45,176 bases of DNA, from sequence record NC_073324.1; one strand, 5' to 3'. Under the pieces are notes generated by a model. It saw only the letters and a list, made by a program, of their open reading frames with translations. It searched no databases and was not told where the DNA came from. Positions within the stretch are counted from its first letter, which is position 1; each line of letters begins with the position of its first letter. Made by a program: the position numbers and the translations under genes. This DNA comes from Escherichia phage vB_EcoS-22664BS2. Shown in pieces: positions 38,587 through 45,022 of this stretch.

Positions 38587-38897
38587 AGCAACTTATCGAG
38601 TTCTTCCAAATTCTTAATAGTGTGTTGCACGTTCAGGTACTGAATCCAGGCGAGAAACCACGCACTTACAGGAAAACTTATAACAATAGTTATCGATATA
38701 ATTAATTTGAAAAGGCACTTTATAATCTCTGCCAGCGTCATGTCTAAAATGTCTTTAAACTCCGCAAAAATCCCCGCTGCATACACACAAAAAGTCCACC
38801 AGTGGCCGCTTACCGCGGAAACACATGTCAGGTATGACGGGCGGTATCCCGCCCTCACTGCTTTAAACGGGTTATCTATAAAATCGTAGATGTTCAT
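38583..38897 (-). CDS. small membrane protein
   Basis: ORF track; two hydrophobic segments. Confidence 0.45.
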   Translation of the reverse strand: MNIYDFIDNPFKAVRAGYRPSYLTCVSAVSGHWWTFCVYAAGIFAEFKDILDMTLAEIIKCLFKLIISITIVISFPVSAWFLAWIQYLNVQHTIKNLEELDKLL

Positions 38898-41155
38898 TCC
38901 AAATCCTCCTCTGTCACTATCAGCATCTCATTCGGTTCGTATATTGTCTTCGGAATCTTGTTATCGTTTATGCCCCACGGCAGTCGATATTGCTTAGGTA
39001 TAGGCCTGTTGTTGTTATCCAGCCCAGAGACGATAACTCCCGCCTCGTGCATCTCTTCCAGTTTCTTTCGAAGGTCGTTATTAGCGTTAATTGGTACGCC
39101 GTAACTATCCTCTTTCGCGGCTTTGACGATAGCGGACATAGAAAACCCGCGCTTGTCGTCGCCCTGCTCCTGCAATTTACCCAACGCGTAAATAACCGTA
39201 GCCTCTTTGGTGTCCAGTTTCTCGAACTGACCTACCTTTTCTTTAACGGCTTCCTTCTGTTCGTCGGTCATACCTTCTACTTTCTTCACGAAGACAGAGA
39301 AGGCGTTAAAGTTAACAAAGACATCGATGTGCGGATTTCCCGCGTCAAAATCTCGTACATCGTCACTACTATACCCTTCCGGAAGCCCCATGAAGTTGTG
39401 AGTTGGTTCTTTCTTTTCCGGTGGCTCCGCTATCTGAATCTTCTGTATTACGAATCCTCTGGCTTTCTGCCGTTCTCCGTTTCGGTTCTTTATGTGATAC
39501 AGGTTTATCTCTAAGTTATTGTCGTTGTCCGGCTTATGCAGGAACATCCCATTATCAATGGAGTTGTGAAAGTCGCTTCCACCCTTCGGCATCATGCCGT
39601 TTTCAGACGGCACAGTTTCGTCGATGTTTTTAGTCGGGTGCACCATAGCGCCGACCGCGGCGTTAAGCGTCGACGCTATTTCGTTAAGCGCCTGCGCCGC
39701 TTCTTTCATCGACCTGTTGTCGTTCTCGTCGAAGCCAGGTATGCAAGTTTGTAGGGTATCAAACGTAACCTTTACAATTTTCTCTTCACCGGCAACACGG
39801 CGCATCATTCTTACTGCCCGGCGGCGCCACACCTCATCGAGTAAGTTACACCCATCCGCAACACAATCGATAATGTGCAAGCGGTCAAGGTTGTCACCGA
39901 GGGCGATTTGCAAAGACTTTTTATGACGCTCGAACGACTGTGCACCTTCACCGGCGAAAATGAACGCATGTCCTTCCGCGACCTCCGCCCCACCGAACGC
40001 ATATCTTTTTTCGGAGGCAATAGCGGCGTCAATCGCCATGCTAAATGTTGACTTACCGGTGTGGGACTTTGCGCAAATGTAGAATGATTCGTTAGTCTGC
40101 ACAAGGCCGTCTACGACGGAGTAAGCAGGTTCTTTTTCAACTTCCGGCTCGTCTTCGAGGTCTTCCAGCGTGCAAGTTACAGGCTCCTCGTTCTCTGTGC
40201 GATGCAGTTCTTCAACCTCTTCGTCCGGTAAATCAGGCAAAGCCGCACGAATGCTGTTAATACTGATAGGTTGCTTGTCTACGTTAAGCTCGTCCGGAAG
40301 GCCGCACATACGCAGGGCTAGATGTTGCCGGCGGTTAAGCTCGGTACAAGCGCCATTGTTTGTGTGCTGGCAGACAAAGCGCACTTCTTTACCGTCAAGC
40401 ATGATGCTGGTGGAGCCTTTACCGGTGTGCAGGTGTTCGTTAGGGCAGGGCACTTCGTACCCGCGCCCGGAAGATAAAGCGTCAAGTCCAAGCTCCGCTT
40501 CGCAGAAATGCGCTATATCTGCGTTAAGCCCATGCTCATCAGCGGCAAGTGTCTTAGCTTCACGTTTACGCAACCCCATCTCTTCGGCTTTCTTGATGTA
40601 CCGCTCCGCACGGATAACACGCCCTTCTGTAACCGTTATCTTCGACTCTCTATGCGGCAGGTAGATAAGGCGGTTGCCGTCTTCTGTGCAGTGGTCACGC
40701 AATGCCTCGTCTATTTCTAACTCTGCACAAATAGCCCGTTGCACCATCCACGCATCGTTAGAGTTAAACGGCGTGCGAGCCGGAACCAGAACGCGGAAGG
40801 CGTAATCACCGTTTTTACACGCGTGCTGATGGGATGCCGTTGTGTGTAGAATATTGAAGAACGGCGCGTTCTTGAATTTGCGGGTAAGGTCGCGGTACTG
40901 AGTACGGTTGAGATGGTCGAAGTCAAACTTAACCACACTGTCTTCCAGAATCGCGTTTTTACGGCGACCCCCAACGGGGGCGATAGCCTTCTGCTTAATC
41001 TTGGCAGCGTCGTACTCTTCCTTAGTCCATGACGGGTCTACGGACAGACGCTTCGATGTATCGCAGACATATTCTACGAACTGCTCCAGCGGCATTTCAC
41101 GCGCTACAGGGTTTTTATCGAATGTGTTACGCAGCGTTGCAAAAACAATATTCAT
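38894..41155 (-). CDS. replicative primase/helicase-like protein (CHC2-like zinc finger plus P-loop ATPase)
   Basis: CPNEH...CQHTNNGAC zinc-finger-like segment; Walker A SHTGKST. Confidence 0.6.
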   Translation of the reverse strand: MNIVFATLRNTFDKNPVAREMPLEQFVEYVCDTSKRLSVDPSWTKEEYDAAKIKQKAIAPVGGRRKNAILEDSVVKFDFDHLNRTQYRDLTRKFKNAPFFNILHTTASHQHACKNGDYAFRVLVPARTPFNSNDAWMVQRAICAELEIDEALRDHCTEDGNRLIYLPHRESKITVTEGRVIRAERYIKKAEEMGLRKREAKTLAADEHGLNADIAHFCEAELGLDALSSGRGYEVPCPNEHLHTGKGSTSIMLDGKEVRFVCQHTNNGACTELNRRQHLALRMCGLPDELNVDKQPISINSIRAALPDLPDEEVEELHRTENEEPVTCTLEDLEDEPEVEKEPAYSVVDGLVQTNESFYICAKSHTGKSTFSMAIDAAIASEKRYAFGGAEVAEGHAFIFAGEGAQSFERHKKSLQIALGDNLDRLHIIDCVADGCNLLDEVWRRRAVRMMRRVAGEEKIVKVTFDTLQTCIPGFDENDNRSMKEAAQALNEIASTLNAAVGAMVHPTKNIDETVPSENGMMPKGGSDFHNSIDNGMFLHKPDNDNNLEINLYHIKNRNGERQKARGFVIQKIQIAEPPEKKEPTHNFMGLPEGYSSDDVRDFDAGNPHIDVFVNFNAFSVFVKKVEGMTDEQKEAVKEKVGQFEKLDTKEATVIYALGKLQEQGDDKRGFSMSAIVKAAKEDSYGVPINANNDLRKKLEEMHEAGVIVSGLDNNNRPIPKQYRLPWGINDNKIPKTIYEPNEMLIVTEEDLE

Positions 41156-42964: not shown

Positions 42965-43270
42965 ATGGGTGAGTGGATTGAGTGTAGTGAGCAGATGCCG
43001 AAAACAAGCGGTCCGGTTCTGGCGTTTTATGTTAATCGATGTGGCAAGGGCAGAAGAGTCAGAGCTAAATATGTCCACTTTCGGCAAGTAGAGGCAGGTT
43101 GCGAAACTGAAGAAATATGCACTGATTATGATGAAGAAAAGGATATTTATTACTTGTCTGAAGGCTGGTATGAGCTCATCGATAACTGGGACGATTATAG
43201 CAGTATCGTGATTACGGAAGGCAATGTAACACACTGGATGCCATTACCAGAACCACCATCGCTGGTGTAA
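42965..43270 (+). CDS. DUF551-like protein (C-terminal HWMPLPEPP motif)
   Basis: ORF track; motif shared with 36910..37167. Confidence 0.5.
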   Translation: MGEWIECSEQMPKTSGPVLAFYVNRCGKGRRVRAKYVHFRQVEAGCETEEICTDYDEEKDIYYLSEGWYELIDNWDDYSSIVITEGNVTHWMPLPEPPSLV

Positions 43271-43305
43271 CAGGTCAATAGGTTACTATTTGTCTTTGTG
43301 ACTTA

Positions 43306-43335
43306 CGCTGCTGTGTAGCAGCGTATCATTTTTCT
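43306..43335 (+). terminator. intrinsic terminator
   Basis: CGCTGCT-GTGTA-AGCAGCG hairpin followed by T-rich run. Confidence 0.5.
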
Positions 43336-43418: not shown

Positions 43419-43447
43419 TTGCACGCTGAGATGGAATAGGCTACTAT
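43419..43447 (+). promoter_or_regulatory. sigma70-like promoter (TTGCAC-N17-TACTAT)
   Basis: Conserved promoter family; leader ACGAGAGGAGAGACAGAG. Confidence 0.5.
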
Positions 43448-43477: not shown

Positions 43478-43651
43478 ATGAATAAACAATATACATGCAT
43501 ACTACAGCAGAATACGGTACTTGGTAAACTAGCGGAAGAACTGCGTGAGGATATGATCGCCCATTATGAAGCCGAAGGTTACGAGTGTACGGTAGTTCAT
43601 GACGAGATTATCCTTACACGGAAACATGAGGTGGAAGGAGAAACAGAGTGA
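43478..43651 (+). CDS. hypothetical small protein (57 aa)
   Basis: Read by eye; GAGAGGAGAG RBS. Confidence 0.35.
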   Translation: MNKQYTCILQQNTVLGKLAEELREDMIAHYEAEGYECTVVHDEIILTRKHEVEGETE

Positions 43652-43748
43652 ACAGTAAAAACTGTGATTCGTAAGTATCGCCGTCGAGGTAACACCGGGC
43701 TTATAGCAATAACAGGCGCTGTTGAATAAGCGAGAGGAGAGACAGAAT

Positions 43749-43889
43749 ATGGGTTGGTACGGTAGTTGGACCTTGGGTGAACTGGTAGACGCTTACGAAA
43801 TAATGGGTAGCACTTCGGTGTGCAACGGCGACACTAAATCGCTGCTAGTCGGGGTGGACGAGAAAAGGGGCGAAGATGATGACGTTTAA
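43749..43889 (+). CDS. hypothetical small protein (46 aa)
   Basis: Read by eye; same GAGAGGAGAGACAGA leader as 43478. Confidence 0.35.
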   Translation: MGWYGSWTLGELVDAYEIMGSTSVCNGDTKSLLVGVDEKRGEDDDV

Positions 43890-44046
43890 AGAAGCAGTAT
43901 CGTACGGGTACTTACGGCGTAGAGGAAATTATAAAGGTGCTCCGTGGGTGTGCAACGGACGCCAGTTCGATACCTGGAAAGAAGCGCTGGCGGAAGCCAA
44001 CGAAATGTTAAAAAGAGACCGGGAGCAACAGAAAAATGAGCAATAA
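43876..44046 (+). CDS. hypothetical small protein (56 aa)
   Basis: Read by eye; overlaps both neighbours. Confidence 0.35.
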   Translation: MMTFKEAVSYGYLRRRGNYKGAPWVCNGRQFDTWKEALAEANEMLKRDREQQKNEQ

Positions 44047-44638
44047 CAACGATGCAGTAATCGAGTTCCTGCTTAGCCAACTACGGCAGCAGGTAAATAA
44101 CAACCCATACAAGCAACAGTGCGAAGACCTGGCGCACGAGGTGCAGTCACTTAAAAATCAGTTACGTGATGCGTCGGCGCTGGTGGCTGAGTTACATAAA
44201 GAGATTGATAGACTTAATGTGCTTAACAGTGAACTTATATTTTCAGAACACGAGCAATCCGATTGCCGTAAGGAAGATACCCAGCGTTGTCACCATAACT
44301 GGCGATTCGTTAATGGTAAGGCTCCCGCCGTATGTATTAATTGCGGAGTGACTAAATCCAGCGAGTGCGAGCACGAATGGCAATTTTACGGAGTCGGGTT
44401 TCCTCGTATGTGCCTTAAATGCGGGTTAAAGAGCCCTGGCCGTCAAAAAGAAGATGCGCAGGAATGCAACCATGATTGGGTTTTGGATGAAAAAGGGGAC
44501 TATTTCGTTTGCGCTAAATGCGGTAAGCAAGAAGCTGAATTAATTGATTGCCAACACACTAATACCGTTGGTTTGCGTAAGGGCTTTGCGCCGGGGTTTA
44601 CTAAAAAGTGTCTGGATTGCGGGGCTAAACTGAAATGA
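44036..44638 (+). CDS. tandem zinc-ribbon repeat protein with N-terminal coiled coil
   Basis: Four repeats of C-x-H-x-(W/N)...C-x2-C-G after an N-terminal coiled coil. Confidence 0.5.
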   Translation: MSNNNDAVIEFLLSQLRQQVNNNPYKQQCEDLAHEVQSLKNQLRDASALVAELHKEIDRLNVLNSELIFSEHEQSDCRKEDTQRCHHNWRFVNGKAPAVCINCGVTKSSECEHEWQFYGVGFPRMCLKCGLKSPGRQKEDAQECNHDWVLDEKGDYFVCAKCGKQEAELIDCQHTNTVGLRKGFAPGFTKKCLDCGAKLK

Positions 44639-44838
44639 CCAGCATCTTATTTATCTGGGTATTGTCGGCAGGCCAGATGCAACTAGCGGCATCAGAAACG
44701 TTTTACTCGATGGAGGCGTGCCAGTCAGCGGCACGCGCCGCAGAGAACGCGCACTTTCTGTTTCAGGGGGACAAGCCCAACGATTCAGAGGTACGCGCTA
44801 TCTGCTCACCTAAGCGACTTGGTAAACAGGAGAAATAA
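44635..44838 (+). CDS. small secreted protein (signal peptide, two Cys)
   Basis: N-terminal hydrophobic signal-like segment ILFIWVLSAGQMQLAA. Confidence 0.45.
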   Translation: MTSILFIWVLSAGQMQLAASETFYSMEACQSAARAAENAHFLFQGDKPNDSEVRAICSPKRLGKQEK

Positions 44839-44839
44839 C

Positions 44840-45022
44840 ATGGTACAGAGATATACCTACGACCAGATATTCGGGTTTACTCCTGATGTTGAGGGCGTGT
44901 TAGTGCTTTACGAAGATTACGCGAAACTCGAAGCCGAGTTACAGAAATACAAGGACCAGTTTCCTGATTACGTTGAGTGCGCGAACTGTGGGTCAGTTAC
45001 ACATGTGAAGGGGGTGGAGTGA
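44840..45022 (+). CDS. hypothetical protein (60 aa)
   Basis: ATG at codon 8 of track ORF with CAGGAG RBS. Confidence 0.45.
   Translation: MVQRYTYDQIFGFTPDVEGVLVLYEDYAKLEAELQKYKDQFPDYVECANCGSVTHVKGVE

Follow-up and report, generated by a model that had tools for sequence, protein, structure and literature searches.

Nucleic acids and RNA polymerase are common binding partners of zinc ribbons, and the ribbon of human TFIIB is of the CHCC type (C-x2-H...C-x2-C). A long coiled coil is combined with a small zinc domain in small regulatory proteins such as HP0958/CT398 and DksA/TraR, in which an antiparallel coiled-coil hairpin is paired with one C4 domain; HP0958/CT398 bind RNA and sigma-54. Minimal zinc units around a C-x2-C-G knuckle also make up the haloarchaeal C(P)XCG micro-proteins (HVO_0758, HVO_2753). 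The parallel coiled-coil dimer of T7 gp5.9, a small coliphage inhibitor of RecBCD and MukBEF (PDB 8b1r, 9gmb), was solved in complex with RecBCD (PMC9836394). Here, we describe 22664BS2_084, a gene of Escherichia phage vB_EcoS-22664BS2 (Kagunavirus, Guernseyvirinae; accession MZ234010; PMC8614997), whose complete genome of 45,176 base pairs is hereinafter referred to as the window. The gene encodes a predicted leucine zipper followed by four tandem C-x-H...C-x2-C-G modules, A to D. Judged from sequence comparison, the four-module array is a rare accreted tandem of the two commonest cassettes of its family, A-B and C-D. The reading that we tentatively favour, with somewhat less than even confidence, is that the product is a non-enzymatic adaptor or binder, dimeric and multivalent, that evolves under diversifying pressure and whose targets would differ between hosts.

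The gene was located at 44036..44638 (+), where the open reading frame (ORF) claimed in the first-pass annotation was borne out: it starts with ATG and encodes 200 amino acids (aa) plus a stop. A Shine-Dalgarno-like box, GGGAG (44021..44025, +), was seen on inspection of the sequence 10 nucleotides (nt) 5' of the ATG, and the start of the gene overlaps the end of the preceding ORF (43876-44046). The product (QZI78573.1 = YP_010749664.1) is labeled 'hypothetical protein' in the record. It matched the hidden Markov model of PHROG 6094 with an expect value (E) of 1e-50 and 172 bits (aa 3-107 on profile positions 2-108 of 142), and the module array by itself matched at E 9.8e-25. Thus, 22664BS2_084 is a member of PHROG 6094, a family annotated as function unknown. 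The isoelectric point (pI) of the whole protein is 6.2, slightly acidic, and that of its N-terminal part is 4.9. Signal peptide and transmembrane segment were absent, as read from the sequence.

The pattern C.H.{10,18}C..CG gave exactly four matches in 22664BS2_084 and none elsewhere in the six frames of the window. Among 200,000 shuffles of the protein, one match was found in 231 and two or more in none; chance does not explain the four-module array. Modules A (aa 85-104, CHHNWRFVNGKAPAVCINCG; 44288..44347, +) and B (aa 111-130, CEHEWQFYGVGFPRMCLKCG; 44366..44425, +), delimited by this pattern, alignment and AlphaFold2, have C85, H87, C100, C103 and C111, H113, C126, C129 as proposed ligands, respectively. 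They are followed by linker 2 (aa 131-143, LKSPGRQKEDAQE; 44426..44464, +; sequence and AlphaFold2), a second copy of the inter-cassette joint, at the position of which relatives with A-B only terminate as ...CGLKK. Module C (aa 144-163, CNHDWVLDEKGDYFVCAKCG; 44465..44524, +), characterized by pattern, charge and Pfam comparison, is acidic (net charge -4 including the tail) and gave the top sub-threshold match to the Pfam TFIIB ribbon model. Module D (aa 172-196, CQHTNTVGLRKGFAPGFTKKCLDCG; 44549..44623, +), characterized by pattern, charge and family counts, carries a loop that is both longer and basic (net charge +5 including the tail) and is the commonest C-terminal module of the family. All four C-x-H...C-x2-C-G modules of the first-pass annotation were found by the pattern search, but the range of 9 to 14 residues that it gave for the spacer after the W/N position was wrong, the spacer being x10 in modules A to C and x15 in module D. 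In all, 12 of the 14 Cys residues of the protein fall inside modules.

Conservation of the proposed ligands was assessed with 120 homologues aligned on aa 81-135, which were the matches listed out of more than 1000 family clusters at 90% identity and which included paralogous cassettes at only 28-39% identity. All eight ligands of modules A and B were invariant or at least 90% conserved in this alignment, as were W89 and G104, and the ligands of modules C and D showed the same conservation behavior. Among 204 modules of the 12-residue-loop class, the entropy of the Trp position was 0.6 bit, compared with 2.1-3.2 bits at the loop positions. Lys was frequent within the second knuckle of the family modules.

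In an AlphaFold2 model built from a 52-sequence alignment, strands were placed between the knuckles at residues 89-92/95-100 and 148-150/157-159, with a predicted local distance difference test score (pLDDT) of 50-78 only; the structure prediction proposed earlier as a check thus gave the hairpin, but at low confidence. Structure searches found no significant similarity to solved zinc ribbons, and a PDB sequence search with the module array gave no match. The non-significant structure matches were rich in zinc ribbons and fingers (TFIIB, RPA12, PriA, TiaS, HVO_0758); those from Foldseek were mostly TFIIB chains. PF08271 Zn_Ribbon_TF, the TFIIB ribbon model, scored 7.8-13.1 bits on 22664BS2_084 against a gathering cutoff of 29. 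It matched 22 of the 120 family members, all below threshold (best E 0.0028), and was the only recurrent zinc-domain, non-coiled-coil Pfam family across them. With two conserved knuckles per module and a hairpin modeled at low confidence in favor, and no significant structure match to set beside them, a zinc ribbon is the most likely module fold, an assignment that is reasonably supported and structurally unproven.

The TFIIB ribbon and the phage modules share two knuckles around a beta hairpin, a second knuckle of the form C-x2-C-G and CHCC ligands. In contrast, the first knuckle of the phage modules is C-x-H rather than C-x2-H/C, an invariant Trp follows the His at a distance of two residues, and the modules stand in tandem behind a zipper, whereas the TFIIB-type ribbon occurs singly at the N-terminus of transcription factors. 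The haloarchaeal micro-proteins resemble the modules in being minimal units around a C-x2-C-G knuckle; HVO_0758 was the top Foldseek match for the module A-B model (E 3.8, non-significant), and HVO_2753_ZBP gave a sub-threshold Pfam match to 22664BS2_084. They differ in being single, free-standing proteins with C4 sites, and the similarity is non-significant.

Two other folds were considered and rejected. The 'treble-clef-like' description of the first-pass annotation was not supported, because the model of modules A and B, at the confidence given above, has no helix after the second knuckle; in addition, the second ligand pair would itself form a C-x2-C-G knuckle. A GATA finger (PF00320; pattern C-x2-C-x17-C-x2-C) scored 18.6 bits against a cutoff of 26.8, its match running over aa 100-132, from the second knuckle of module A to that of module B. 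Single-module relatives cannot form such a bridging register. A cross-brace or GATA-like arrangement, in which adjacent modules would share zinc, was likewise rejected, as chimeras occur and the module number is one or three in 100 of 241 relatives. Given how often odd numbers and chimeras are seen, each module would have to bind its own metal. PF01258, the DksA/TraR C4 zinc finger, did not match 22664BS2_084 even at E up to 10.

The N-terminal region begins with an amphipathic helix (aa 3-21; 44042..44098, +; AlphaFold2) that stops at an N-N-N-P break and is followed by the leucine zipper (aa 24-72; 44105..44251, +), recognized from AlphaFold2, heptads and the family alignment. The pLDDT of the two helices was about 82-97, exceeding 90 in the helix of residues 24-72. 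The latter shows unbroken 3-4 spacing (Y25, C29, L32, V36, L39, L43, A46, V50, L53, I57, L60, N64, L67), so that the 'coiled-coil-like' region described before was confirmed in the model as well as in the sequence. Leu occupies five of the six d positions (L32, L39, A46, L53, L60, L67), and the a positions (C29, V36, L43, V50, I57, N64) carry beta-branched residues plus a single Asn. By coiled-coil rules, Leu at d combined with Val/Ile and a lone Asn at a marks leucine zippers of two parallel strands, and the heptad pattern indicates that the zipper probably forms a parallel homodimer. Residues 28-47 are near-invariant across the family, the solvent-facing ones as much as those of the core, which suggests either a conserved docking partner or homogenization of a 5' recombination arm. 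The zipper runs into linker 1 (aa 73-84, EQSDCRKEDTQR; 44252..44287, +), delimited by conservation, the 'EQSGCRKEDxQE' joint ahead of the first module of a cassette, in which C77 is near-invariant and aa 79-84 were modeled as a short helix. C29 (nt 44120-44122), an invariant residue at a heptad a position, would face its copy in a parallel dimer; together with H34 (nt 44135-44137) and C77 (nt 44264-44266), it is a possible extra metal or redox site.

The combination of a long coiled coil and a small zinc domain in a small protein recalls HP0958/CT398 and DksA/TraR. The number of zinc domains in the phage family varies from 0 to 4, unlike in those proteins, and no Pfam threshold was reached; the CT398_CC Pfam model gave sub-threshold matches in 27 of 120 members.

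When a profile of 30 family N-termini was searched against PDB, T7 gp5.9 came out on top (23.9 bits, E 2.9e-4); generic coiled coils followed, the best of them at E 0.009. Both are small coliphage proteins with a parallel dimeric coiled coil (predicted for the phage zipper), and they share an identical SLKNQL and common core positions. This similarity raises the alternative that 22664BS2_084 is a DNA mimic like gp5.9, in which the acidic parallel zipper would fill the DNA site of RecBCD (or MukBEF) and the zinc modules would be accessory. The shared residues, SLKNQL included, coincide with family-invariant positions, a reciprocal search matched solely this ORF among 816 six-frame ORFs (E 0.007), and the low pI of the N-terminal part of 22664BS2_084 (4.9) would fit such a role. 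In addition, Kagunavirus isolates vary in Old sensitivity (PMC11990801), and Old is described, in the abstract of a bioRxiv preprint, as a sentinel acting in RecBCD-compromised cells. The details of the match argue against mimicry, however. The acidic gp5.9 residues that contact RecBCD are D4, D11, D15, D21, E24, E36, D38, E39 and E45 (PMC9836394, Table 1), and the family is acidic at two of these nine positions, with E30 and D45 kept. The similarity falls on gp5.9 residues 23-49, whereas divergent Autographiviridae homologues conserve residues 4-30, and the family-consensus N-terminus has a pI of about 6.0 versus 4.1 for gp5.9. With a single sequence the match reached only E 0.65, and it is confined to the coiled coil, the composition of which inflates such matches. 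gp5.9 further differs in its length of 52 aa, its N-terminal beta brace and the absence of zinc modules. With contact residues, matched segment and pI all failing, gp5.9-type mimicry was downgraded and is considered quite improbable.

A word-indexed search gave 1126 clusters (90% identity) for the whole protein as query and 393 when only the zipper was used. A relative was encoded in 220 deposited phage genomes, nearly all of Escherichia and Salmonella phages, and was annotated as hypothetical or with labels tracing to coiled-coil noise. Modules were counted in a sample of 241 family proteins, which is biased because half of it came from the four-module query: 31 proteins had no module, 87 had one, 104 had two, 13 had three and 6 had four. 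About 15 loop types occur in the family. The general order was a near-invariant zipper, optional heptad inserts, the linker EQSGCRKEDxQE and a cassette of one or two modules. The xKEDxQE linker preceded 185 of 228 first modules (types A, C and others) and 5 of 130 second modules (B, D). The commonest cassettes were C-D (56 + 8 proteins) and A-B (22). The layout of 22664BS2_084, linker-A-B-linker-C-D, was found in only four proteins of the sample, 22664BS2_084 itself and further members of its 90% cluster included. Relatives also included chimeras such as A+D, truncations directly after the linker and ligand-less forms, and in-frame deletions fuse the zipper to either of the two following genes. 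Variable copy number and chimeras suggest that the modules are autonomous. A beta insert of about 60 aa without zinc ligands, W[IV]E..G.CPVP..T.VD[IV].[FY]R[DN]G...DIV.YR, replaces or adjoins the zinc modules in some relatives (P0006, P0018, P0034, P0035, P0011; loci L016, L019) and matches PHROG 9174/26870 (function unknown).

These natural truncated, ligand-less and deletion variants may be taken as a sign of dispensability, and they bear on two further alternatives. The first denies the protein a specific function of its own: the gene would be a filler ORF, selfish or in decay, or else its product would be an accessory of lysis or of the virion that has been mistaken for a binder. It could draw on the many relatives that are truncated or deletion-fused to neighboring genes, on the adjoining lysis cassette and on the homologue labels 'cell division protein' and 'tolA-binding protein'. 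Those labels stem from coiled-coil noise, however, the Pfam matches all being sub-threshold. Frame, zipper and every ligand are kept in hundreds of 90%-identity clusters, which argues against decay, and the signal peptide or transmembrane segment that a spanin or holin needs is absent; a spanin or lysis role was rejected on the latter ground. We therefore regard this alternative as very improbable.

The second, a sequence-specific nucleic-acid-binding regulator, is the main rival of the adaptor reading, and we consider it unlikely. The zipper dimer would bring ribbons in pairs to a dyad DNA site or to an RNA element and thereby control the transcription or translation of host genes or of the lysis and late genes downstream. 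Several features are consistent with this: the nearest Pfam model is the TFIIB ribbon, a dimeric zipper suits dyad recognition, the basic module D is the most conserved module, Lys is common in the second knuckle, and the gene lies upstream of holin/holin/endolysin on the same strand. Coiled-coil plus zinc-ribbon proteins such as CT398 offer analogues, given the sub-threshold matches mentioned above. On the other hand, the whole protein is slightly acidic (pI 6.2), module C is strongly acidic, and binding heads that are lost, truncated or replaced wholesale in relatives are not to be expected of a protein regulating conserved late genes. A DNA site co-varying with the modules is not known, although no search aimed at one was made.

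To locate the variation, 31 related loci were compared at the protein and DNA level. The first 165 nt of the gene were aligned in 27 of the 31 loci (median identity 86%); no locus could be aligned over the middle part; the A-B part was aligned in two (91.1%) and the C-D part in seven (88.9%). The downstream gene was aligned in 29 loci with a median DNA identity of 95.5%, and the genes directly 5' (43478-44035) in none. At the protein level, the zipper region was 38-85% identical, while the cassettes were often unalignable. The downstream gene, of 67 aa (44635..44838, +; PHROG 3766, function unknown), has a hydrophobic signal-like N-terminus and abuts the stop of the zinc-module gene with an ATGA overlap. 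Since its product was 91-100% identical in 29 of the 31 loci, the cassette variation is local, and the alignment profile places the cassettes between two conserved arms within an accessory region in flux. DNA repeats within the gene showed 70-86% identity over 14-30 nt; because of this low identity, the array is not a recent tandem duplication at the DNA level, and the repeats are old.

The adaptor reading would work as follows. The zipper would form a parallel homodimer, with eight modules hanging from one end. Each module would be a CHCC zinc ribbon that folds independently about a single zinc ion, with C-x-H as the first knuckle, a hairpin whose first strand starts from the conserved Trp, and C-x2-C-G as the second knuckle. 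The variable hairpin loops would serve as contact surfaces. The conserved stalk would dimerize, perhaps docking on a conserved partner as well, and the exchangeable heads would recognize host-variable targets, such as host defense components, resident prophages or competing phages. Stacking of cassettes would widen the target range. That four modules are a rare condition, reached by accretion in a gene whose cassettes are hypervariable, speaks for an accessory role of the conflict type and not for a core takeover function.

Several points weigh against this adaptor. The pLDDT of the modules was only 50-78, and none of the Pfam zinc-domain thresholds was reached by 22664BS2_084. No functional link was found for it in PADLOC, NCBIfam, PHROGs or the literature. 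The best E was 0.025 in both PADLOC-DB and NCBIfam, in each case coiled-coil noise, and besides PHROG 6094, searches of Pfam, NCBIfam, PADLOC and PHROGs gave only sub-threshold coiled-coil or zinc noise. The Kagunavirus, Jerseyvirus and Guernseyvirinae literature searched held no described function for the family. Homogenization by recombination, instead of a partner, could lie behind the invariant zipper surface. Further, neutral mosaicism of the accessory region could explain the hypervariability, which is conceivable because the sequence at 43478-44035 is also unalignable in relatives.

Modules of this kind are also found outside phages. A phmmer search with aa 78-200 returned 210 proteins at E up to 0.001 (library-wide), comprising phage relatives and two other groups. 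The first group consists of secreted Clostridia-type proteins with 4-17 tandem 26-aa repeats of GHxWxxATCTxPKTCxxCGxTEG (within P0126-P0269, e.g., P0126, P0127, P0131 and P0148), with a median of 5 copies and a maximum of 17. These repeats keep the H-x12-C-x2-C-G spacing, with the fourth ligand shifted to H+7. A signal-like N-terminus was present in 103 of the 123 repeat proteins of at least 260 aa, and single repeat proteins also carried a dockerin, transglutaminase-like or DUF6273 domain. For this repeat, no Pfam family, NCBIfam family or PDB entry was found. The second group consists of giant proteins of 2600-4400 aa with N-terminal arrays of ECEHEWVTDPETSKTTCSKCG, the phage module type. 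In P0135, P0169, P0188 and P0238, arrays of ECEHEWVTDPETSKTTCSKCGIEK lie near the N-terminus; three of these four have a signal-like start, and P0169 seems to lack its N-terminus. The arrays of the giant proteins passed PF08271 Zn_Ribbon_TF with 43.3 bits versus the cutoff of 29.

The Firmicutes repeats share the H-x12-C-x2-C-G spacing, the conserved Trp and a period of about 26 aa with the phage modules, and E values between the module array of the window and the Firmicutes repeat proteins ranged from 2.4e-19 to about 1e-4 (phmmer). In contrast to the phage protein, the Firmicutes/Clostridia proteins are extracellular, are 300-4400 aa in length with up to 17 repeats and have no zipper, and the common 26-aa repeat has a Cys at H+7 instead of the phage Cys at H-2. 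A bolder form of the adaptor reading would be plug-and-play recognition, in which mini zinc ribbons are swapped and stacked as cassettes on a fixed zipper dimer, each type neutralizing or sensing a different host or rival-phage factor, with the four-module array as a broadened-spectrum form and the same mini-domain used as a bead-like repeat in giant surface proteins of Firmicutes. In this version, cassettes would be exchanged by recombination, with the zipper-coding region and xKEDxQE linker as the 5' arm and the next gene as the 3' arm. We regard this extended version as doubtful.

The surroundings of the gene were also examined. It sits in a + strand run of small ORFs that starts past a divergent helix-turn-helix gene and the helicase-primase gene and crosses the genome ends into a holin (266-574), a second holin, endolysin and terminase. 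A terminator-like hairpin with a T run (43304-43325, +) lies 3' of the ORF at 42965-43270, and about 150 nt without an ORF separate it from the sub-cluster holding the zinc-module gene. A promoter scan upstream of this sub-cluster found no sigma-70 consensus promoter. The candidate TTGCAC-17-TACTAT at 43419-43447, with 7 of 12 consensus positions, was not reported by the scan and was rejected. In the transcriptome of Kagunavirus K1B4, only 4 genes were early and 42 of 57 genes were middle; its timing classes are too coarse to place 22664BS2_084, an orthologue of which was not identifiable in its supplements. The 'early operon' of the first-pass annotation is therefore an assumption.

The 67-aa gene is unusually strongly conserved for so small a gene beside hypervariable 5' sequence. 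It is followed by another small gene (44840-45022, +; PHROG 29624), ending in ...ELQKYKDQFPDYVECANCGSVTHVKGVE. In P0306 the family zipper is fused in frame to the C-terminus of the PHROG 29624 gene, and in P0356 to that of the 67-aa gene, the modules being removed in both. The helicase-primase gene (38894-41155, -) shows mosaicism in the genus: alleles with at least 95% identity occur in 18 phage records, and that of other Kagunavirus phages, e.g., Bas75, is only about 60% identical. Its use as a marker for counting Guernseyvirinae genomes failed because the gene itself is mosaic.

The gene was already deposited and clustered, and zinc ribbons and small zinc-finger phage proteins are familiar. 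In the literature searched, we found no description of a zipper with an exchangeable, copy-number-variable C-x-H-x-W...C-x2-C-G array, nor of a link between phage modules and the unnamed repeats of Firmicutes surface proteins. If the proposed model is wrong, 22664BS2_084 would be an ordinary small zinc-finger protein. If it is true, small siphoviruses of E. coli and Salmonella would carry a compact, easily engineered binder scaffold made of a zipper and zinc modules of 20-25 aa, and its natural diversity, with about 15 loop types in 0-4 copies, would record an ongoing conflict with a host or phage factor. As the module is common to large Firmicutes surface proteins, defining the C-x-H-x-W...C-x2-C-G variant would annotate many proteins. 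Kagunavirus and Jerseyvirus phages are used in therapy and biocontrol and have been put forward as models for synthetic biology (PMC11990801). For such phages, it follows that an isolate-specific accessory gene is a candidate for determining host range at a level other than the receptor.

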